A stretch of DNA of 64,000 nt from Escherichia coli (GCF_045037415.1 NZ_CP173438.1), one strand, 5' to 3'; shown: positions 2,693 through 31,619, counted from the first letter of the stretch. Program-made: numbers and translations. Notes: generated by a model from the sequence alone, not told the origin.

Positions 2693-5600
2693 ATGTCGGT
2701 ATGTCTGAAACCAGGAAAAATCATTGTGCTTCTGGGCATGTTGGCAGCCTTTATGCTGTCTGACTTTGCACGGGCAGAGGTGGAATGGCAGACATATCCT
2801 GGTTCTACAGGCGAGTTTAACGGTACAGTTCCTATTGCCGATAGCGCCAGCGTACCCGTTTATCAGGGAAGCGTTCAGCTTGATCCTGCTGCATCTCATG
2901 ATGTGGCGTTTTCTGCTAAACCGAATGAATTTAGCGTTGACGATGACGCTGCTAACCTGATAGTTGCTAATCCTCAGGACAGTGAAGGCGACCAGTTTTC
3001 TACACCACCTGCGCTGCGCTGGGAAAACCAGACGCCGCCGACCGTCAGTCTGGTGTGGGCGGATGCCGCCACGCCGGATACGCCGCTCAATCCACAGCCC
3101 ATCGCCAACCGCAGCTTTTGCGCGCAAGGTCTGGCCGGGCGTTCGCTGGTGGCCTGGCCACAGATTGATGCGCAGCAGACCATTCCACTGCTTTATCTGC
3201 TGACCTCGACCGGTTATCCCTATGAGGGGACGGTGGTGCTGGCTGACCAGAAAGTGACGCTGAATATCGCGCCCGCGCAGGGCGATTTAATTTCGGTGAG
3301 CGCCAGTGGTTATAACGAAACGCTCGGCGCGGCAAAAACCACCGTTGGCGGCACTATCACGCTGACCGTCACCACCAAAGATTGTCAGGGTAACGTCGCG
3401 GGTAATATTCCATTTATTATCAAGCGTAAAGATGCCCAAAACCGTCAGGGCGCGGTAAATAATACCGCGCCGGTGGTGCTGGATAGCACCGAGTTAACGA
3501 CGACGGTAACCGAGTATCGTGGCACATCGGATGCTAACGGTACGGCAACCATCACGGTGACCCAGCCTAACGGCCCCGGTGTTAAAACGCCGCTGGTAGT
3601 CGGCATTTCCGGCATTGCACAAACCAGTGAGGCGGCGGTGATCTTTACCGTGCTCACCAGCCCGGACGTGGCGCAGGCCACGATGTGGGGCCATATGGCG
3701 GAGACGGTGGAAGCCCATGGTTACACGTTCAGTAGACCAAAACTGGCGGCGGAAGTCAGTAACGAAAATGCCACGGTCGTCGATCACAATGAAACCTGGT
3801 CCACCTTTACCTGGAGCGGCGCAGATAGCCATTGCACCGTGCTGCCGGGCATGCGCCACTTCGGCGCACTGGCGACGGTGATTCCCTCCACGGTACAGAC
3901 TGTGCTCGGCTGGCCGATGCAGGGCGATTATTACTGGTCATCGCTGGCGGGGCTTACCGGGCAGCACCATGCGGCAGATGTCTCTAACCGTGGCGAAACG
4001 CAGAAGCCGGACAGCACCACGTTCCTCGTGAGCTGCGTGGATAAGCCCGCGCCTGACGTCGAGCCGAAAATCGTCCTCACGCCAGAAAACTATGATGACA
4101 CGGCGCAGGCGATGAAAGCGAAGGTGGGCGAGGATGCGACGATGCGTCTGGCCATCACCGACACGAAAAACAACGATCAACCGCTGGCGTATTACTACTT
4201 CTCGCTACATCTGGATGATGGCGTCAATCGTAAGAATCAAACCGACACTGCCTGGGAAGCCCATCCGGTACAGATTGCTGGCGGCAGTAATTTTCGCCAG
4301 GTCGACGCACATACCTATGAAGGCATGACCGACGCCAACGGCCAGGCTTCGCTCACCCTGAGCCAGCCCGGCGGCGCGGGGGTGAAAACCCATATCACGG
4401 CAAGAATGCGCAGCGATTTTAACGCCACAGATGCCAAAGATGTGATTTTTACCGTAATCACCAGCCCGGACAGCGACAAAGCGCGGATGTGGGGCCATAT
4501 GCGCGGCATTATTGAGTCCGGCAGTTTGTATAAACGCCCGTTGCTGGCGGATGAAACCGAGCATGAATTGGGAACAGTGCGGGAAAATAACGAAGACTGG
4601 GCGCTCTACGATCAAAACACCAGTATGCAGGCGGAATGCGGCGTCGGTCATATACCGCGCCAGAGCTCACTGGAAAGCCTGTTTTCAGCCCATCCCGGTA
4701 ACGCGATTGGTACTGAATATGGCTGGCCCACTGCACAACAGGGCTATTTAAGCGCGGTGGAGCAAGCCACGCATTCATCGGTGGATCTGGGGAACGGGAG
4801 CGTCGACAGCTATTCCGGCTTTAAGCCGAATTACCTCTCCTGTTCGGGTAATGAGATGGTAGCGAATGTTGAAGTCAGCACCGATCATGATGTGTCTGTT
4901 GGCACCCAAGCGCAAGCCAAAGTGGGTGACACCATTGTGATGACCGTGCGTACGATTAACTCGCTCAATAATATCCCTGTACCCTTTACTGCATTCACCA
5001 TTACCAAAGGTATGGGGTATAACCGAGCGGGGCAGGTGAGCGGGTTTGATGACCCGAGCAGTGGTGCAATCACGATGGATAACACGCAATACGGCACATC
5101 ACAGTCATCGAAGGTTTATGCGGGAATAACCGATGCCCGGGGCGTGGCGACGGTCGAGATTAAGCAACCACAGGGCGTCGGGCTAAAAACGGTGCTGAGC
5201 GTAACGCCGGTAAATTCCTACCTGCCGAATACCGTTAACTACAGCGTTATTTTTACTACCCCAACCAGCCCGGACGTTACCGGCGCGCAGATGTGGGGCC
5301 ATATGGATGAAACGATCACCGTTGATTCATCAACCTTTACCCGGCCTAAACTGGCGTCGGAAGTCGCCAGCCCGGACGGAACCCTGACCGAAAATAACGA
5401 AATCTGGGCGCGCGTGAGCCAGGCCAATACGTCCAGTACCAGTAAAGGTGGCTGCGACACCAATATGTTGCCACGTCGTTCCCAGCTAAGTGCGCTGTAT
5501 AACGCCAACAGTGGTAACGCGGTGCAAACGGCGCACGGTTGGCCAACACAGCGTCAGCCTTACTGGAGCAACTCACCGGCAGATAAAACTCCACACTTTT

Positions 5601-8600
5601 TCACGATAGCGCTGAACGATGGCGCACAAACTATTGGCGGCGATACGCCGGTTTACGTCAGTTGCCTGAAGACGGCGAACAAACCTGCCAGCAGCATTAC
5701 GCTGGAGGTGGTTGATAAAGCGCAATGGAATACCGGGAATAGCGCGGCAACGCTGAAAAAAGGCGAGACGCTACAGGTTAAAGTGACGGTAAAAGACGCA
5801 CAGGGCAACGCGTTAGCGGATATGCCATTTACCCTCAATCGCGGTGATGGCTATACCCGTAGCGGCGAAAAACATGTGGCGGGCAGCGGCGATGCGCTGG
5901 TTGCGCCGGTGGTAGTCAATGGCGGGCTGGCAGATGAAACCACGTTGAACGACACTGCAACGGTGTATACCGCCATGACCGACAATGACGGCAGCAAAAT
6001 TCTCAATATTACCCGCCCGGATACTCACGGCACCAAAACGGCGCTGACGGCAATGCTTTACTCTGATGCGACGAAAAAATCCAGCATCGACACAATCTTT
6101 ACGGTGGTGACCAGCCCGGATAGCCGCCTGGCAAAAATGTGGGGACATATGCCGGAAACGGTGACTGCTGCGGACGGTACGGTATTTAAGCGCCCGCTGT
6201 TGTTGAAGGAACTGGCCTATCAGACTGGGCGAACATCAACGTCTGAAGACAATGAAAACTGGGCGTTGTTTAACATTAATTATGCAAGTTTTTCCACGAC
6301 GTACAGCGGCTGTGGAACCAACTATATTCCGACTCAGGCCGGTCTGACGTCACTGTTTGCTAATAATGCGGGCAACACCATGAAAACCGTGCAGGGCTGG
6401 CCGGTGGCAACGCGCTATTTATCCAACACTTCCGACAACGGCAGCATGGAGCAGCGTAACTACAAGGCGGTAGATCTCAGCAATGGCACGAGTGCGGCAG
6501 TGTCATCAACGACGCTGGAGCTGCTGACCTGCCAGACCGCGCCGATAGCCGCGGTGAGCCAAATCCTGCTGGAAGCGGCAGATCCGGTGACGCTGGATAC
6601 CACCTATAACGTGGTAAAAGCGAAAAAAAGCGAAGAATCCGTGGTGCGCGTCATCACCAAAGATGCGCAAGGCAACCTTGTGGGCAATACGGCATTTATC
6701 CTGACGCGAGCCAACAGTGTAAGTCGGGCTAATTCATCGGCGACGATGAGTGTGGGCGCGCTGACGGTGACGGATGCGTGGGGAAATACGCGAAATAATT
6801 TCCAGTCAACGAGTGAAACCATTTACGGCGTGACCGGTGCCGACGGGTCAACGACATTTACCCTAAAACAGGATAACAGTACCGGGTTAAGAACCGATCT
6901 CACGGCAAAACTGGATACGTCCAGCAGCGTCAAGGCGATGCTACCGGTGGTCTTTACCGTCGTGACCAGCCCGGATTCGCCAAAAGCGAATTTTTGGGGA
7001 CATATGGCCGAAACGGTGACGGCCTCCGATGGTTCGGTTTATAAGCGACCGTTGCTGTTTGGCGAGCTTACCAACAACTATGCACGATATAGCACGTTTG
7101 AGAACGGTGAAAGTTGGGCAAGATTCACCTCGACTCAGTCGGCTGACACCAGCATGAATGGGTGTGGTACAGATTATATGCCAACGCTGGATGGTCTGAA
7201 GTCTTTGTATGACGCCAATAGAGGTAATGCGATGAATACGGTACAGGGATGGCCGGTAAATATGAGTTATCTCACCAATACCCCGAGTAATACACAAACA
7301 GGGAGCCGTTACTACAATGTGGTGCAACTAAATTCTGGCGCAGTTTCGCAAATCGTATCCACCGTGCTGGCGTTACAAACCTGCCGTACAACGCCGTTGA
7401 TGACTGCCAGCCAGATTACGCTGGAAGCCTCAGACCCCGGGCAGTTTGTCAGCATTGACAGCACACTTAGCGCCGTCAAAGCGAAGAAGGGGGATGAGGT
7501 GTCGATCCGCATTTCGACTAAAGATGCGCAGGGGAATTTAGTCGGCAATACGCCGTTTGCCCTGAAACACGCGAACTCGATCAATCGTCAGAATGTGACG
7601 TCATCGCAGAAAGTGTCAGTCACGACTGCGGCGGGTGCGACGGTGGATACCAGTGCAACGACCATCCTGTATGGTGTAACAGGGCCAGATGGAACCACTA
7701 CGATGACGCTCCGACAGGATGCTTCCACTGGGTTAAGAACCGACTTTTATGCTCTATTAAACGATACTGGCGTGTCGTCGGACACCTTGTCGGTGATCTT
7801 TACCGTCACCACCAGCCCGGATACGCCGCTGGCGACCAATTGGGGCCATATGGCGGAAACCTTTACCAGCAGCGAAGGCGTCACCTTCAAACGGCCTTTC
7901 CTCAAAGCCGAACTCTCTGGCGGTACGGCGAAAACGGCCAATAATGAAGTCTGGTCGCTCCTGACCGCGACTGAGAAAGCGGACGTCAGCAAGGCTGGGT
8001 GTGATGAGGCGTATCAACCGCTGACGACTGATATGCAGGGGCTGTATGTCGATTATCCCAATGGTCAACTGGCAACGGTGCTCGGCTTGCCGACTGCTGC
8101 AGGGAACTGGTGGGATTATGACATGATGGCGGTAGCGGGCGGTAGCTGGAGTAACCAGGCGTTTGTTCCGGGAAATGGTCAGTTGATTCAGGCATCGTCC
8201 AGCTATACGGCGATAGTGATGTGTTTGGTAGAGCCTCATACGGAAGCAGTCACAATAGAGCTTACCTCAACGGCGCAGGATGCAGCAAAATCGCTCAGCA
8301 ATGATGGACGACCGAGCGCTGTAGCGAAGAAAGGTGAGCTGATTCCGTTGACGGTGACCGTGCGTGATAGCGCCGGGAACCCGATGCCATATGCCGACTT
8401 TACCCTTTCGCGTGAAACGACGCTGGATCGCGCGAAAGCAACCGTTAACACGAGTGCAGACGATCTTACCGTAACGGCATTGGTTCCGGTGAGTAGGGAT
8501 AGCGTGTTGACAGCAAGTGGAGCAAAAACTCTCGCAACGACGGGCAGTGATGGCACAGCCACCTTTGAGGTTGGGCAGTACTCTACTACCGGGTTGGCGA

Positions 8601-10774
8601 CGCCGTTAACCGTGACGCTGGCGCGTGATACAACGAAAGTCGCCACGCTGGATGTTATCTACACGGTGATTACCAGCCCAGATTCACCGAGTGCTAAATT
8701 CTGGGGGCATATGCCGGACACCTTTACCAGTTCGGCGGGCGTCACCTTCAAACGACCCCTGCTGAAAACCGAAACCAGCTCAGGCTTATCGATTAGTTCT
8801 AACGGCGAAGTTTGGTCGTATATGAGCAACTTGCAAAATTTAACATCTACAGATTGCCCACTCGAGAATCAACCGCGCAGTAAGGAACTGTTGGATTTGT
8901 ATAGTGATCATCCGAACGGCGCAATAATGACTGACCTTGGGTTACCGATGAATGCGGGTAACTGGTGGGCTTATGATATGGCCATACTGGGTACAACAAC
9001 GTGGTCTTATCAGACTGTCAGCCTGAGAACAGGAGCTATCGCGAAGAATTCTGCAACCAACGCACTGATGCTCTGTCTGGCGCAGCCGCATCCGGCAGGC
9101 GTTAGCGTAACATTGACGTCATCCGCACTGGATGACGCCAGAACCCTCAGCAATGGCGGCCGACCTAGCGCGTCAGTGAAAAAAGATAACCCATTGCCAA
9201 TTGTGGTTATGGTCAAAGATCGTGATGGCAACCCGCTGGCGGGCGAAGCGATAACGCTCAGGCGTGATAATGCGATGAGCCGCTCAGGAACCATTGTAAA
9301 CACGGCAGCAAATGTGATGGTATTGACGGAACTGGCACCCGTGTCGGCAACATTCACTCTCGCCTCACACGGCACGCAATGGCTTGGTTTTACCGGCAGC
9401 GATGGTACGGCGATATTCAATGTTGAACAGCCTGATACTGTCGGCCTGGCAACACCGTTTACCGCCATCCTGGCACGTGATACGGAAACCACCACTGTCC
9501 TTGATGCGATCTTCACCGTTGTCACCAGCCCTGATTCCGCAATGGCGGCCTACTGGGGTCATATGCCGGATACGGTAACGGCAGAAAACGGTGTGGTCTT
9601 TGAAAGACCTAAATTGTGGAAAGAGCTGCCGTCGACATCAGGGGTTAGCAAGGTCAATAGTAACAATGAAGTCTGGCCCGTGTTTAACGCAACGCAGAGG
9701 GCTGACAGCAATCTCAGCCCTTGTGAAGCGGCACGTCGGCCATTGAGTGATGATTTAGAATCGCTCTATGCTCGCTATCCGGGGAACACGCTGACGACAC
9801 AAATCGGTTGGTCTACGCAGTATACATGGTGGGCGCTGGATAACTGGCTGGGAGGCAGTAATCCGCAGGTAGTCGGTCTGAATAATGGTTCAGCGTGGGG
9901 GACGGTGAATACCGCGTATCAAGGGTGCCTGGTTAACCCGCGTGCGACTGTCTCCAGCGTCACGTTGACATCGACGGCACTGGATAGCAGTACGCAGGCG
10001 GCGAAGGTGAAAAAAGGCGACGCCGTTCCCGTTGTCGTTACCGTGAAAGACAGTGTCGGGAAACCAGTGCCGAATATTTCGTTTATCCTCAAACGTGGTG
10101 ACGCTACGCCGCGTAATAGCGGGGCGACGTTGTATGGCGATGTGGATACAATGGACGATTTGACTGTACAACCCTCATCCGGTGCGGCAGTCACGTTGGC
10201 TGATAGCGGGAATACAATCGATGGAGTTACTGGAGCAGACGGTACAGCAAGTTTTACCGTTGGTCAGGATAATACGCCAGGATATAAAACGCCGTTGACG
10301 GTGACGCTGACGGATAACGCCACAATAACGGCGACGCTGGACACGATTTTCACCGTGCCGACCAGTCCTAATGTCGCCACGGCGTATTTCTGGGGTCATA
10401 TGGCGGATACCGCCACGGTAAGTGGCAAGATGCTGCATCGCCCGCTATTAAAATCGGAGTTGCCGTCAGGGGTTACCGCAGCAGCAACGCCCAATGTGAA
10501 TAATGAAACCTGGGCGCTGGCACATGTTATAGATTCCACTAAATGGGATGTCGCACGGCAGTGCGGTAGTATGAATAACGTGCCGAGCAGTGCCGAATTA
10601 CAAACATTACACTCCGGCTTTAGCACATTGGGATGGCCGTCATCGATAAGCTTCCCGTATTTATCTACTGATAAGGCTGGATCGTTCTATTGTGGTGTTG
10701 AGGAAGGCTCTGGCAGTCTCAACTGTGGCATTCAGCCTGCGAAAACGCCGGGGTTTGCAACCTGTTTCCAATAA
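2693..10774 (+). CDS. ratA: Giant repetitive Ig-like-domain surface protein (2693 aa), RatA-like
   Basis: Signal peptide at N-terminus; about nine tandem repeats of roughly 280 aa, each ending in a conserved FTVxTSPD..A..WGHM(A/P)(E/D)T motif; adjacent to xseA as in CS54-type islands. Confidence 0.65.
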
Positions 10775-21290: not shown

Positions 21291-21875
21291 TTATTGTTTG
21301 TTTTTTTCGTTCTGGTTGATGACAAATTCAATGTAACTTTCGATCTTTGCTTTCTCGGTTTCGGGTAACAATGCGTAGCGTGAGCGGTCATAGTTGATAG
21401 TCGCAGGGTCGTGCGGGTGAATCAGTAGTTCATATCCGTGACGCCCGAATGCGGATGCAACATTCTCCAGGGTGGAAATGGAAACGCTGACCTCATTGTT
21501 TAACAGGCGGCTGATTGTCACCTGGGCGACGCCGGATGCGCGGTGAAGTTTTCCCTGAGTTGAAAGGTCGCGGCTTTCACTCATCCAGCGTTCCAGGTTG
21601 TGAGCTGCCAGCTGACCAATGTCGCTTGGGCCGACAGGCTGAAAACCTTCCTGAGAAAGCGAGCGATCGATATCAAGCCAGTTACGGGGTTTATTGGCGG
21701 CAGCTTCAATTTTTCGCGCAACCTGGTCGCCGATAACCTTCTTGCCAAGAGCCCAGCGGTTTACCAGATTTGCCTGAGTTCCAAGTTTTTCTGCCATCCG
21801 CGTCTGAACACCATTGAATTCACGGTCGATCAAGTCGTTGAGATTTTGCCTGCGGACGTCCTGGATACTTTTCAT
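21291..21875 (-). CDS. Prophage repressor-like regulator with two HTH modules and no peptidase S24 domain
   Basis: 194 aa; two HTH-like segments (..TRMAEKLGTQANLVNRW.. and ..ASGVAQVTISRLLNNE..); divergent from the Cro-like gene; no Ser/Lys autocleavage domain. Confidence 0.6.
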   Translation of the reverse strand: MKSIQDVRRQNLNDLIDREFNGVQTRMAEKLGTQANLVNRWALGKKVIGDQVARKIEAAANKPRNWLDIDRSLSQEGFQPVGPSDIGQLAAHNLERWMSESRDLSTQGKLHRASGVAQVTISRLLNNEVSVSISTLENVASAFGRHGYELLIHPHDPATINYDRSRYALLPETEKAKIESYIEFVINQNEKNKQ

Positions 21876-21930
21876 TTTCTGGAAAATCGCCTCATATATG
21901 AATCAGTAGATGATTCAATTTAAAGCAATA

Positions 21931-21945
21931 TTACCCAACAGGTAA
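21931..21945. promoter_or_regulatory. Palindromic operator-like motif TTACC-CAACA-GGTAA in the repressor/cro intergenic region
   Basis: Perfect copy. Confidence 0.6.
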
Positions 21946-21951
21946 ATGCAC

Positions 21952-21990
21952 CCCATAGGTAACTATCCTTGATTTTTGTTACCTTATGGG
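21952..21990. promoter_or_regulatory. Second inverted repeat in the immunity region (cccataggtaac-N14-gttaccttatggg) overlapping the putative rightward promoter -35
   Basis: Half-sites GGTAAC/GTTACC in outward orientation; candidate rightward promoter -35 TTGTTA 21976-21981 and -10 TATTAT 21999-22004. Confidence 0.45.
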
Positions 21991-22029
21991 TGAATATTTA
22001 TTATCTGAAATAAATATCAGGCAATAGCT

Positions 22030-22260
22030 ATGAGCGATAACGGACATTTCGATTTCAAAAAGCACTGGCTTGCACTTACTCCGGATGAGCGTGAAGCCTT
22101 CGCACAGGAAGCCGGAACGACGAGTCACTATATCCAGACTCACTTAACAGGTAAGCGCAAAATGCCAGGTAAGGTATTGATGAATGGGCTTTTTAAAGCA
22201 TGTAAAACAAGACAATGGCTGCGCTCAAAAGCGGAACTGGCATACTTCTTCTACTCATGA
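22030..22260 (+). CDS. Cro/CII-like small HTH regulator
   Basis: 76 aa, HTH-like ..EAGTTSHYIQTHLTGKRKMP..; divergent from repressor. Confidence 0.5.
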   Translation: MSDNGHFDFKKHWLALTPDEREAFAQEAGTTSHYIQTHLTGKRKMPGKVLMNGLFKACKTRQWLRSKAELAYFFYS

Positions 22261-22282
22261 TATCTGGCAACAACCCTCTGTA

Positions 22283-22304
22283 GACCGCCATCCGGCGGTC
22301 TTTT
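22283..22304 (+). terminator. Rho-independent terminator after cro-like gene (tR1-like)
   Basis: gaccgcc-atcc-ggcggtc followed by TTTT. Confidence 0.55.
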
Positions 22305-22315
22305 CATATCTATTC

Positions 22316-22330
22316 GTACCTCAAAGGTAA
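22316..22330. promoter_or_regulatory. Imperfect palindromic motif GTACC-TCAAA-GGTAA
   Basis: One mismatch to TTACC-N5-GGTAA; just downstream of the tR1-like terminator. Confidence 0.4.
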
Positions 22331-22410
22331 TAAAAAACCAAATCTGGTTGATCTTTTTTTTGTGTCAGCACAAAATAACCGTAATCCCAATACTAATAAC
22401 AGGGCTTACC

Positions 22411-22611
22411 ATGGAAATCATTACACGTATTGATGCCGCAAAGCGCGGACTTAAACGCTACTACACCGGAAAACCATGTAAGCACGGACATGACAGTGAA
22501 CGCTGGGTTTACAACGGACACTGTGTTGAGTGCACCATGGAGTCAAACCGTCGCATCAGGGCAGAGATTAAGCAGATCATGATTAATTCCTCCCCACAAC
22601 ATTCAAGCTGA
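22411..22611 (+). CDS. Small Cys/His-rich (zinc-finger-like) hypothetical protein
   Basis: MEIITRIDAAKRGLKRYYTGKPCKHGHDSERWVYNGHCVEC..; start chosen at ATG 22411. Confidence 0.4.
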   Translation: MEIITRIDAAKRGLKRYYTGKPCKHGHDSERWVYNGHCVECTMESNRRIRAEIKQIMINSSPQHSS

Positions 22612-22626
22612 TAGCGGAGATTAATC

Positions 22627-23442
22627 ATGAGCAGACATGCAACAGATTGGGCTTGGGAGACAGATCCAGGTAGCTCATCATTAAAGCTCATACTGCTCTC
22701 GATGGCTGACAGAGCCGATGAATATAACCTCTGCTACCCCAGCATAGAACGCCTCGTTAAAGACACTTGCCTGAATAAAAAAACCGTGCAGGCCGGGCTT
22801 ATATCGCTCATGAAAATGGGGATTATTTCAGATACCGGAGAGAGAAAGGGAGCGACAAAAAGAGTGCGGGTTTTCTCTCTTAATATAACCAAAAACGGGA
22901 ACATTAAAGGCAACCGGGAGGGGGGCAATGAACCCGAAAACGGGAATATACCCGAAAACGGGAATATACCCAAAAACGGGATGTTGAATGATCCCAAAAA
23001 CGGGATGTTGAATGATCCCAAAAACGGGATCCAGAACCAGTCATATAACCAGTCATTTAACCAAGAGAGGGAGAGCAGGACAAAAAGCGGGGATTCTGTG
23101 CCTCATGACCCCGGAGCAAACAACGCCGTGATGAATAACTTTGTTCCTCCTGGTGGGCCAGGGCAATTAGGCAAATTTGTCATGCATGAACAATGGCAGC
23201 CATCAGATGACTTTCTTCGGAAAAGCTCATTGCAGGGGATCTACCTGGACAGTCTGCCAACGGCACAGGAACTTGCAGAGTTCAGAATTTACTGGATGGC
23301 TGAGGGTAAGGCATACCATCAGGCACAGTGGGAGCAGAAGCTGGCAAGGCGGCTGCAGATTAGCAGACAGAAGCAATCAACATTACCTGATAACAACGTT
23401 CCGCACTGGAACAGCCCTGAAGCATGGGAGGATTTCTTGTGA
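22627..23442 (+). CDS. Replication initiator (O-like: N-terminal HTH, internal repeat linker)
   Basis: N-terminal HTH-type domain; in-frame tandem repeats in the middle (NGNIPENGNIPKNGMLNDPKNGMLNDPKNG); directly precedes the P-like helicase loader as lambda O precedes P. Confidence 0.6.
   Translation: MSRHATDWAWETDPGSSSLKLILLSMADRADEYNLCYPSIERLVKDTCLNKKTVQAGLISLMKMGIISDTGERKGATKRVRVFSLNITKNGNIKGNREGGNEPENGNIPENGNIPKNGMLNDPKNGMLNDPKNGIQNQSYNQSFNQERESRTKSGDSVPHDPGANNAVMNNFVPPGGPGQLGKFVMHEQWQPSDDFLRKSSLQGIYLDSLPTAQELAEFRIYWMAEGKAYHQAQWEQKLARRLQISRQKQSTLPDNNVPHWNSPEAWEDFL
22933..23032. repeat. Iteron-like tandem direct repeats inside the replication initiator gene (candidate phage origin)
   Basis: Five copies of the core CCC(G/A)AAAACGGGA: two 18-bp units (cccgaaaacgggaatata), two 24-bp units (cccaaaaacgggatgttgaatgat) and a partial fifth. 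Confidence 0.55.
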
Positions 23443-24224
23443 ACAACGTTTTTACCGCGATACAAAACCGTGACGGAGAAGCCCTTTCTCGCATGTCAGG
23501 TTATGAGCATCAGTACGTCAACAATGACAATGTGGTGAACATGTCAGCAGAGAGGCTTGTTGATGCCCTTTTTAAACAGCTGAAACAACTGTTTCCGGCG
23601 GCAGTGGTAACCAACCTGAAGACGCCAGAGCAGGAAGTTGCTGCAAAACAGCAGTGGATTGCTGCGTTTGCCGAAGGGGGGATCCGAACCCGTGAACAGG
23701 TTTCTGCTGGTATGCGCCACGCCCGCGCCAGTGAATCTCCGTTCTGGCCGTCTCCAGGGCAATTTATCAAGTGGTGCAAAGACAGCAAGATGGTTCTTGG
23801 CGTCACCATTGACGATGTGATGGCGGAGTTTCACCGGTACAGCAAGGAAAAAAGTTTATATCCTGGTGGTCCCGAAAGATTCCCGTGGCGACATCCGGTT
23901 ATGTACTGGGTCGTATGTGATACCCGCCGTGCAATGTATCAGCGCCAGCTTAGCGAGATTGAGGTTGAGAAACACGCACGCAGGCTGCTCGATGATTGGG
24001 CGAAAAAGGTGGCTTCCGGACAGCAGATACCCGATCCGGTGATCAGCATACAGGCAAAGCCAGAGCCCATGAGTACGCCTCCGGACACAGGGAGAGACGT
24101 TTACCATCCACCAGGGCGAAGTTTCGGGTGCATGCCTAACGCCGCCACCCTTGGGGGAATAACACCGGCGCAGTGGCTGATGGAGGAATACAGGCGGGGA
24201 AAGGCGGCAGGATTTATCAAGTAA
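23424..24224 (+). CDS. Replication protein P-like (DnaB helicase loader)
   Basis: Clear similarity to lambda P central region as recalled (..QWIAAFAEGGIRTREQVSAGMRHARASESPFWPSPGQFIKWCKD.. versus lambda ..QWVLAFRENGITTMEQVNAGMRVARRQNRPFLPSPGQFVAWCRE..). Exact start uncertain (23424 or GTG 23439). Confidence 0.8.
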   Translation: MGGFLVNNVFTAIQNRDGEALSRMSGYEHQYVNNDNVVNMSAERLVDALFKQLKQLFPAAVVTNLKTPEQEVAAKQQWIAAFAEGGIRTREQVSAGMRHARASESPFWPSPGQFIKWCKDSKMVLGVTIDDVMAEFHRYSKEKSLYPGGPERFPWRHPVMYWVVCDTRRAMYQRQLSEIEVEKHARRLLDDWAKKVASGQQIPDPVISIQAKPEPMSTPPDTGRDVYHPPGRSFGCMPNAATLGGITPAQWLMEEYRRGKAAGFIK

Positions 24225-24261
24225 TACCAGCGCGATAGCGCATTTTTTTACGCCTCGACAA

Positions 24262-24276
24262 TTACCTGTTAGGTAA
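24262..24276. promoter_or_regulatory. Palindromic operator-like motif TTACC-TGTTA-GGTAA
   Basis: Perfect copy, upstream partner of the site at 24324. Confidence 0.6.
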
Positions 24277-24296
24277 TAAAATTTTCTAAAATCTAT

Positions 24297-24324
24297 TGAT
24301 TTCGTGTCTTATGTGGTTTTTAAT
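24297..24324 (+). promoter_or_regulatory. Candidate sigma70 promoter (TTGATT-N16-TTTAAT) for the DUF1064/HNH operon
   Basis: -35 24297-24302, -10 24319-24324; the -10 abuts the palindromic motif at 24324-24338. Confidence 0.4.
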
Positions 24325-24338
24325 TACCTCAGAGGTAA
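24324..24338. promoter_or_regulatory. Palindromic operator-like motif TTACC-TCAGA-GGTAA overlapping the promoter -10/+1
   Basis: Perfect copy 4 nt upstream of the ATG at 24342. Confidence 0.6.
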
Positions 24339-24341
24339 ATC

Positions 24342-24695
24342 ATGAGAAAACAGATACAGGCTCTTGGTCGACTCAAAACAGGTCAGATGAACAAAACAGA
24401 ATCTGCGTATTGCCAGCACCTTGAGCTGCGTAAACGTGCAGGGGAAATCGCCTGGTATCGATTCGAGGGTATCAAGCTACGGTTAGCTGACAACTGCTTC
24501 CTGACTGTAGATTTTGCCGTGATGTTGGCTGACGGGCAGTTGGTGATGGTGGACGTTAAGGGAAGTAAGTCAGTCTTTACTGACGATGCGAGAGTCAAGA
24601 TGAAGGTTGCGGCAGACAGCTATCCGTTTGTCTTTCAGGTTGCTTATCCAAAACCTAAAAAGCTCGGTGGTGGATGGGAGGTTGAGGAACTATGA
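24342..24695 (+). CDS. DUF1064-like phage protein
   Basis: 117 aa MRKQIQALGRLKTGQMNKTESAYCQHLELRK..; recalled as a conserved phage family of unknown function. Confidence 0.5.
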   Translation: MRKQIQALGRLKTGQMNKTESAYCQHLELRKRAGEIAWYRFEGIKLRLADNCFLTVDFAVMLADGQLVMVDVKGSKSVFTDDARVKMKVAADSYPFVFQVAYPKPKKLGGGWEVEEL

Positions 24696-31219: not shown

Positions 31220-31296
31220 CTGGCGTGGCATGCAGGATTCGAACCTGCGACCAACCGCTTAGAAGGCGGTTGCTCTGTCCAACTGAGCTAATGCCA
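31220..31296 (-). tRNA. tRNA-Arg (anticodon UCU), phage-encoded
   Basis: Folded by hand: acceptor GTGGCAT/ATGCCAC, D-arm GCTC..GAGC, anticodon stem ACCGC/GCGGT with loop CTTCTAA (anticodon TCT), T-arm GCAGG-TTCGAAT-CCTGC, discriminator G and encoded CCA. Confidence 0.85.
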
Positions 31297-31619
31297 CAAC
31301 GCTGAGAGCACTTAGCCTGTTAAGGCGCCACACTTTGTCGCGGCTCCATAAATGCTCTCATCGTTGTACCCTCGTCTCTTCCGAGGCGTCACACCGAATC
31401 GCCGGGATGGTGAATCCCCGTGCGCGGAATAAAACCGCTCGACTTGCACATTCCGGCTACCTGGTTCGTTTGCCCGAGCAAGGGAGGGTGCCCCTTAAAC
31501 GTATCCAGACCGCTATCGGCGCATGTGCCATACGCCGTACTGCTCAAAATAAAAGCTCACTCCACCTGTTCAATTTAACGACAATCCAGTCAGGTTAGTA
31601 ACCGGAATGAACTCTTTGG

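Follow-up and report, generated by a model that had tools for sequence, protein, structure and literature searches.

The replication origin of phage lambda lies within the initiator gene O, as an array of dyad repeats (iterons) placed between the segments encoding an N-terminal DNA-binding domain and a C-terminal domain, and in-frame deletions of this origin act in cis, the shortened O protein remaining functional in trans (PMC6022878). Iteron plasmids (RK2 with TrfA and oriV, F with RepE, pPS10 with RepA, R6K with pi) also rely on winged-helix initiators and directly repeated sites; in RK2 and F, the winged-helix Rep protein binds the iterons as duplex and the repeated 13-mers of the DNA-unwinding element (DUE) as one single strand (PMC4081077). 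Here, we describe an array of short dyad repeats located inside an O-like replication initiator gene, in a stretch of 64,000 nucleotides of Escherichia coli DNA (GCF_045037415.1, NZ_CP173438.1; hereafter the window) that carries a phiV10/epsilon15-like (Uetakevirus) prophage. Very probably, the prophage starts its vegetative replication from an origin of which this array is the part bound by the initiator. Conservation, the use of the reading frames, codon choice, co-variation with the N-terminal domain of the initiator (N-domain), a natural chimera with lambda, and a circular plasmid favor the proposal of a preliminary description of the locus, namely that the repeats are iterons of an origin housed in the initiator gene as in lambda.

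The locus shares with the lambda origin its location within the initiator gene between N-terminal DNA-binding and C-terminal domains, a dyad-repeat array (four copies of ATCCCTCAAAACGAGGGA with spacings of 20, 24, and 23 bp in lambda; five copies plus one, of the type ATCCCAAAAACGGGAT, with spacings of 18, 18, 24, and 24 bp in the window), a similar half-site design (TCCC, A-tract, GGGA), a position downstream of cro- and repressor-like genes, and an iteron number that varies among relatives (PMC7466680). It also shares a P-type helicase loader encoded directly downstream, as the preliminary description had it: the alignment with lambda P begins at the N-terminus (31% identity, E = 2e-35, BLASTP), and this similarity marks the protein as a genuine lambda P homologue. 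The two loci differ by the initiator, which in the window combines HTH_36 and DnaT domains and is neither detectably similar to lambda O nor a member of Phage_rep_O, by the DnaT-like nature of its C-terminal domain (C-domain), by the A+T content after the iterons (78–80% in lambda), by three [G/T]AACC 12-mers and then a purine-rich tract in the window, and by the 28-bp right-arm palindrome of lambda, which the window lacks. Functionally, the arrangement is that of lambda; it is not a lambda O origin, because it departs from lambda in its initiator family, its C-domain, and the element after the iterons. With respect to the iteron plasmids, the three 12–13-bp repeats of the window resemble the layout of a short-repeat DUE, but the initiator falls outside the Rep_3-type families and has one winged-helix domain instead of two, the iterons are palindromic (dimer sites) and not asymmetric 17–22-mers, the origin lies inside the coding sequence of its own initiator, and a lambda P-type loader delivers the helicase.

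A pattern search located five exact copies of CCCRAAAACGGGA on the plus strand, spanning 22933–23029 and spaced by 18, 18, 24, and 24 bp, and a sixth copy with one mismatch, ACCAAAAACGGGA, at 22888 (Table 1). The copies had been described as five tandem in-frame repeats in 18- and 24-bp units; the units and the frame stand, and the number becomes six. Tandem Repeats Finder recovered the same units (18 bp, 2.8 copies at 22932–22981; 24 bp, 2.6 copies at 22969–23030). All six copies (22888–23029) are in frame with the open reading frame (ORF) 22627–23442 and lie in the DNA encoding the linker between the two domains of the initiator, where the repeat-coding stretch translates to TKNGNIKGNREGGNEPENGNIPENGNIPKNGMLNDPKNGMLNDPKNGIQNQ. 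Each unit is a small dyad, CCCR-AAAA-CGGG. With up to two mismatches, the window holds 12 matches as compared with 2.68 ± 1.88 in shuffled sequences, none of 100 shuffles reaching 12; chance does not account for the repeats. Of the 12 occurrences of the looser family core, CCRWWWWYGG, in the 64 kb, six belong to the array, and the other six are scattered singles near chance level that form no second cluster, for which reason additional iterons elsewhere in the prophage, such as at promoters, were rejected. In phiV10, and in the majority of the 80 close relatives described below, a counterpart of the upstream copy, iteron 0, stands at the identical 45-bp offset. Two minus-strand terminator-like hairpins within the array (23020–23001 and 22996–22977) are by-products of neighboring dyad half-sites, and antisense terminators were rejected since the count for the region, 5, is about the shuffle expectation of 3.9. 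Likewise, Rfam gave no match at E ≤ 1 in 21800–24500, and a structured RNA was rejected.

To what extent these repeats are constrained as DNA can be read from their diverged relatives. A tblastn search with the initiator protein together with three scans of IMG/VR yielded ~250 loci, which were thinned to 34 representatives with pairwise N-domain identities below 90% and with ~38–55% identity to the N-domain of the window; their hosts include Escherichia, Edwardsiella, Vibrio, Acinetobacter, and Burkholderia, and metagenomic phages are also represented. Within the 360 nt following the N-domain, the representatives together have 135 matches to CCRWWWWYGG; the rest of their loci, 78 kb, has six, and the density is thus 144-fold higher after the N-domain. 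The shared motif is a dyad found directly after the N-domain (GTCCC, A/T tract, GGGAC), with the family logo (C/T)AGT(C/A)CC-R-AAAA-Y-GG(G/T/A)AC. Furthermore, the symmetry extends beyond the core, complementary flanking bases being present at positions ±1, 2, and 3 in 62, 80, and 79 of 128 cases for 49.8, 64.6, and 45.5 expected, and at expectation at ±4, which therefore delimits a 16-bp dyad of the type that a dimer would read. Many copies are perfect palindromes, for instance ATCCCAAAATTGGGAT and GTACCGAAATTGGTAC.

The motif uses all three reading frames, 28 of the 135 copies lying in the two frames other than the common one, and its spacing differs among phages (17/22 bp in Burkholderia phage Bcep176, 22–34 bp in the EBPR podovirus), so that one DNA motif encodes several peptides. 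Codon usage was examined through protein-level matches to the peptide [PT][EK][NI]G, a procedure that is not circular because its 77 instances were found through the peptide and not the DNA. In the motif peptides, proline is encoded by CCC in 45 of 45 cases as compared with 12 of 219 (5%) elsewhere in the same ORFs (p = 5e-40, a value that overstates independence, as do the other p-values, since the copies of an array share ancestry, as do the loci of the family). Threonine is always ACC (32/32; 30% elsewhere), glutamate GAA (25/25; 62% elsewhere), and lysine AAA (52/52; 63% elsewhere), and asparagine is AAC in 54 of 56 cases (54% elsewhere). Despite the shared descent, there is no doubt as to which way the effect points or how large it is. 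With synonymous sites frozen in this way, the linker peptide alone is no explanation.

The repeats are thus constrained as DNA independently of the peptide (the earlier proposal was of a constraint on DNA and protein alike), which bears directly on the possibility that they are merely a slippage-prone, low-complexity linker rich in Asn, Gly, and Pro and devoid of DNA function. This possibility could account for a region that does encode a disordered linker, for the gain and loss of whole units among close relatives, and for the 79% of copies sharing one frame. It would leave unexplained the fixed synonymous sites of Pro, Glu, Lys, and Asn codons, the presence of the motif in all three frames with differing peptides, the dyad symmetry reaching into the flanks, and the fact that none of 80 close relatives has fewer than four copies, and we regard it as close to refuted.

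The motif follows the N-domain of the initiator. In phi24B O, Pseudomonas phage phi2, and Thermus phage Cumys, with N-domains at 27–33% identity, different dyad repeats stand at the equivalent place: GGGGCAGGAGCTGCCCC in three copies in phi24B, GCACCCCCGCAGGAAATGC in seven copies with 17-bp spacing in phi2, and GGTGGTGAAC..GTGCACCACC in Cumys. In Moraxella phage Mcat8, with an N-domain ~40% identical, the repeats differ too, and in the linker (1501–1752 of the locus) a compound unit of 84 bp is present three times. This unit is built of GGGGGTACAATTTTGCA-type and GGGGGTGCAAAAATGATACCCC-type sub-repeats and is much larger than those of the rest of the family. Conversely, Enterobacter phage Tyrion and Klebsiella phage ST512-KPC3phi13.3 keep the DnaT-like C-domain and P with an unrelated N-domain and lack the family iteron motif; the linker (1100–1190 of the locus) carries 3.4 copies of GGATCAG, which contains GATC, and an inverted repeat, GTACCGTA..TACGGTAC, which may represent a different type of origin. 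The repeats change with the N-domain and are lost when it is replaced; it is therefore the N-domain that they accompany, whichever C-domain, loader, or host is present, and this co-variation is, at the level of sequence comparison, the pattern expected of a cognate initiator–iteron pair.

The same comparison makes it very improbable that the repeats are sites for a host factor or for another phage protein rather than for the O-like protein encoded by the surrounding gene. A dyad of the ACCGAAAACGGT type is a generic design for dimeric binders, equal to the papillomavirus E2 site, and binding of the initiator to the repeats is itself predicted from sequence; both facts would suit another binder. 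However, the motif accompanies the N-domain family across hosts from Vibrio to Burkholderia, changes as the N-domain diverges, and is absent where the N-domain has been replaced while the C-domain and P were kept; a host factor is unlikely because it would not co-vary with the N-domain.

Two natural constructs place the array within a replication module. Edwardsiella phage GF-2 (1201–2043 of its locus) encodes an N-domain of the window family followed by an array of three ATCCCAAAATTGGGAT copies that aligns exactly over the four iterons of lambda, and downstream of it come the right arm of the lambda origin (GAGAATTCTGRCGAATCCTC), a lambda-type O C-domain, and then P. As judged from this alignment, GF-2 is a natural chimera in which the N-domain and array stand in for the N-domain and iterons of lambda. 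The second construct is the 8,461-bp circular E. coli plasmid pZ1323HEC0067-2 (NZ_CP148379.1), which encodes a repressor, a cro-like protein, YdaT, an O-like protein of the N-domain family of the window, P, and cargo (hokD, rem, an HNH endonuclease, and an ATP-binding protein). The O-like/P module comprises its sole recognizable replication genes, and its four matches to the core motif all lie in the O-like linker. This plasmid looks like a natural counterpart of lambda-dv, and its gene content would imply that a module of this kind can replicate on its own, if the assembly is correct. In addition, the 41-kb circular record pHL15EC-2 represents a phiV10-like genome as an episome, with an O-like protein 98.5% identical to that of the window.

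Plasmid iterons also serve control functions. The repeats could, by analogy, be initiator-binding sites with a regulatory task (autorepression, handcuffing copy control, or incompatibility), opening and helicase loading taking place at another site. In keeping with this idea, no strongly A+T-rich tract adjoins the array, and the distal iterons of Shiga toxin (Stx) phages are weakly bound (PMC7466680). Against it stand the GF-2 array, located exactly at the position of the lambda iterons and beside the right arm of the lambda origin, a conserved triple repeat found family-wide at a fixed 16-nt offset from the last iteron, the single cluster formed by all four motif matches of the 8.5-kb plasmid, and the lack of a second motif cluster in the 64-kb window. 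We consider a purely regulatory role unlikely and retain the array as a probable part of the origin.

An A+T-rich unwinding element had been anticipated just downstream of the array, and this expectation fared poorly. A lambda-like tract of high A+T content was not found, since the A+T content is 62% at 23030–23063 and at most 60% in any 40-nt window downstream of the array; at these values, the unwinding site is not obvious from composition. A conserved triple repeat is present instead. Directly after the array, Tandem Repeats Finder detected a 12-bp unit, AACCAGTCATAT, in 2.4 copies at 23035–23063, which corresponds to three [G/T]AACC pentamers (Table 1). A triple [G/T]AAYC with 12–13-bp spacing is found in 24 of 37 representatives, in most of which it begins 16 nt after the last iteron core, and a scan of both strands of these loci (198 kb) gave no further pentamer triple. 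Most of the other representatives have two pentamers or a near variant (GAACA in Bcep176, GGAAC in the EBPR podovirus). A combination of 12- and 13-bp spacings is frequent and shifts the pentamer between reading frames, two or more frames being used at 19 of 29 loci; the element is therefore conserved as DNA. Family-wide, the composition of the 50 nt downstream of the last iteron is strongly skewed (44% A, 19% T, 15% G, and 22% C).

By analogy with the DUE 13-mers of plasmids, the pentamer triple is a candidate DNA-unwinding or single-strand-binding element. Besides the window, it was located at ~1655–1705 of locus L259, at ~1707–1740 of locus L260, and in most loci among L098–L257, and it also occurs, despite unrelated iterons, in Pseudomonas phage phi2 and Thermus phage Cumys. 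The triple is thus kept from phages of E. coli, Vibrio, and Acinetobacter to those of Pseudomonas and Thermus, across changes of iteron sequence, of C-terminal domain, and of helicase or loader type. That it is a previously undescribed, universal opening or single-strand-binding signal of a large superfamily of winged-helix (HTH_36-type) phage initiators is a possibility we put forward tentatively and hold to be rather doubtful. If true, a conserved surface of the N-domain would read the triple as plasmid Rep proteins read the 13-mers of the DUE, and the triple would replace the A+T-rich tract of lambda.

A mechanism can be proposed on these grounds. Rightward transcription from a pR-like promoter would express the O-like and P proteins and cross the origin. 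Dimers of the O-like protein would bind each 14–16-bp dyad, (A/T)(T/A)CCC-R-AAAA-C-GGG(A)(T), through the N-terminal winged helix, with CCC and GGG as half-sites separated by a spacer of A/T only, and six occupied sites may assemble into an O-some-like nucleoprotein complex. This complex would destabilize the adjoining GAACC/TAACC 12-mers and the purine-rich tract (23034–23095), one strand being held by the DnaT-like C-domain and/or the winged helix of the initiator, and the lambda P-like loader would then bring host DnaB for the origin to fire. The linker peptide would tolerate the in-frame gain or loss of 18- and 24-bp units while selection holds the DNA sequence fixed; the lambda in-frame deletions mentioned above match such a disordered linker, of which the DNA matters and the peptide does not.

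Several observations weigh against the assignment as an origin. The 79% of copies in one frame leave room for a contribution of the peptide or of duplication history, and the common descent of copies and loci inflates the statistics, as already mentioned. The A+T content after the iterons (60–62%) exceeds the gene average of 52% and falls short of the 78–80% of the lambda tract. The O-like protein of NZ_CP148379.1 is just ~34% identical to that of the window, and its circular assembly is taken at face value. A fold search with the N-domain returned the generic winged-helix class and no particular initiator family. Finally, a search of the openly accessible literature found no paper on an origin or iteron of the phiV10/epsilon15 type, and its matches to the motif strings were papillomavirus E2-site papers and primer sequences, nothing else.

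While iterons inside an O-like gene are known and will not surprise specialists, the family-wide iteron consensus and the conserved triple 12–13-mer go beyond the textbook description, and the dual-coding statistics and the apparently universal post-iteron element may be of use to them. The analysis provides a concrete candidate origin for phiV10/epsilon15-like prophages, which are common in E. coli, phiV10 itself being in use as a reporter and typing phage. It also delineates a broad initiator family, usually misannotated as "primosomal protein DnaT", with one layout (16-bp dyad iteron plus triple 12–13-mer) that could serve automatic origin annotation and the prediction of incompatibility between replication modules. 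Furthermore, the linker offers a clean case of dual coding, in which a DNA-binding function would freeze the synonymous codons of a disordered segment, and the triple repeat offers a route to asking how an initiator with a single winged helix opens DNA without a strongly A+T-rich element.

The initiator ORF belongs to phrog_1032, "replication initiation protein" (E = 1.3e-107), in agreement with the earlier designation as an O-like initiator gene; descent from lambda O was not borne out. BLASTP detected no significant similarity to lambda O, so direct homology was rejected, the likeness in iteron design serving as a lead only. The only Pfam domains are HTH_36 (residues 18–67) and the DnaT DNA-binding domain (residues 184–252), with no match to Rep_3/RepA-type families. 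In the full-length AlphaFold2 model, the N-domain is predicted with confidence as a winged helix and residues 90–178, which hold the repeats, have a predicted local distance difference test score (pLDDT) of ~25 between two confident domains, in support of the statement that the repeats encode a linker. A sequence search of the PDB matched the C-domain structures of DnaT (9zbt, 6aep, 4ou6, and 4ou7; E ~1e-20), residues 180–265 aligning to DnaT residues 85–170, while the N-terminal 178 residues, including the N-domain, had no match. The homology to E. coli DnaT (primosomal protein I) is therefore that of the C-terminal 70–85 residues; the winged helix and linker, about the N-terminal two thirds, have no DnaT counterpart, and the gene differs from DnaT in residing in a phage cro/O/P module with its own iterons. 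"Primosomal protein" is a label for one domain and not for the whole protein. DnaT binds single-stranded DNA, and the C-domain presumably does likewise and/or contacts the P–DnaB complex.

The GTG start of the P-like gene overlaps the stop codon of the O-like gene, an alternative ATG being present at 23424, and RefSeq homologues are annotated as 786-bp genes. The region upstream of the initiator gene contains a small conserved ORF together with genes of the repressor and cro types; a consensus scan predicted a terminator in this upstream region alongside the weak match to a pR-like promoter (Table 1). The 1.6-kb O–P module (22627–24224) is 100% identical to that of E. coli strain 4/0 (NZ_CP023849), has matches with at least 80% query coverage in 391 of 5,426 complete E. 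coli genomes, and is 97.6% identical to phage phiV10 (Uetakevirus), in which the initiator gene is annotated as "putative primosomal protein" and no origin is annotated in the corresponding stretch.

Table 1. Coordinates of the features of the candidate origin and its surroundings, numbered from the first nucleotide of the window
Feature	Position	Strand	Evidence or remark
pR-like promoter candidate	21976–22004	+	Upstream of cro-like gene; consensus match, 9/12 positions; weak
O-like replication initiator gene, 271 aa	22627–23442	+	ORF; holds the whole candidate origin
N-terminal winged-helix domain, aa 1–88	22627–22890	+	Presumed iteron-binding module
Iteron 0, ACCAAAAACGGGA	22888–22900	+	One mismatch; 45 bp upstream of the array
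Disordered inter-domain linker, aa 90–178	22894–23160	+	AlphaFold2; origin elements all inside
Iteron 1, CCCGAAAACGGGA	22933–22945	+	Sequence, Tandem Repeats Finder, pattern search
Iteron 2, CCCGAAAACGGGA	22951–22963	+	Sequence, Tandem Repeats Finder, pattern search
Iteron 3, CCCAAAAACGGGA	22969–22981	+	Sequence, Tandem Repeats Finder, pattern search
Iteron 4, ATCCCAAAAACGGGAT	22993–23005	+	5-bp dyad arms; sequence, Tandem Repeats Finder, pattern search
Iteron 5, ATCCCAAAAACGGGAT	23017–23029	+	5-bp dyad arms; copy adjoining the presumed unwinding region
Three [G/T]AACC pentamers, 12 bp apart	23034–23062	+	GAACC 23034, TAACC 23046, TAACC 23058
Purine-rich tract	23064–23095	+	84% A+G on + strand; closes the origin region
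DnaT-like C-terminal domain, aa 180–252	23164–23382	+	PDB sequence matches; Pfam PF17948, E = 2e-15
Lambda P-like helicase loader	23439–24224	+	phrog_109, E = 4.7e-92; BLASTP to lambda P

The preliminary description had suggested comparing repeat number among related prophages. Among 80 close relatives from IMG/VR, with N-domains 98–100% identical to that of the window, 48 match its architecture (45, 18, 18, 24, 24), and the total copy number ranges from 4 to 9, never falls below four, and differs always by 18- or 24-bp steps. The number thus varies without refuting the origin, because iteron number also differs between lambda, with four, and the Stx phages, with six (PMC7466680). The unit variants CGGTAATGTTACCG and CGGGAATATACCCG differ in the spacer and in the outer base of each arm. 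Another variant iteron, TACCGAAAACGGTA (L003, 624–660, and other phiV10-like relatives), has the sequence of the papillomavirus E2 site, ACCGN4CGGT, the spacer being AAAA; the two have probably converged on a site for a dimer in which an A-tract separates the arms. In Escherichia phage YDC107_2 (CP025713.1, 560–700 of the locus), one-base changes in A-tract length (CCCAAAAAACGGG, CCGAAAGCGG) fragment the O-like ORF and are probably homopolymer sequencing errors.

The phiV10-type O–P module is also present in two records of larger phages, Escherichia phage BP9 (PP488543.1; 98% identical, at 134937–136510 of 138,295 bp) and phage PH444 (PP350014.1; 114,913 bp). The location of the BP9 module near the end of a record classed as a 138-kb Vequintavirus looks like an assembly chimera or contamination and not gene transfer. 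Elsewhere in the window, a tRNA-Arg gene with anticodon TCT lies within the prophage region (31221–31297, minus strand), and an ORF of 2,693 amino acids lies outside the prophage, in the flank (2693–10774, plus strand).

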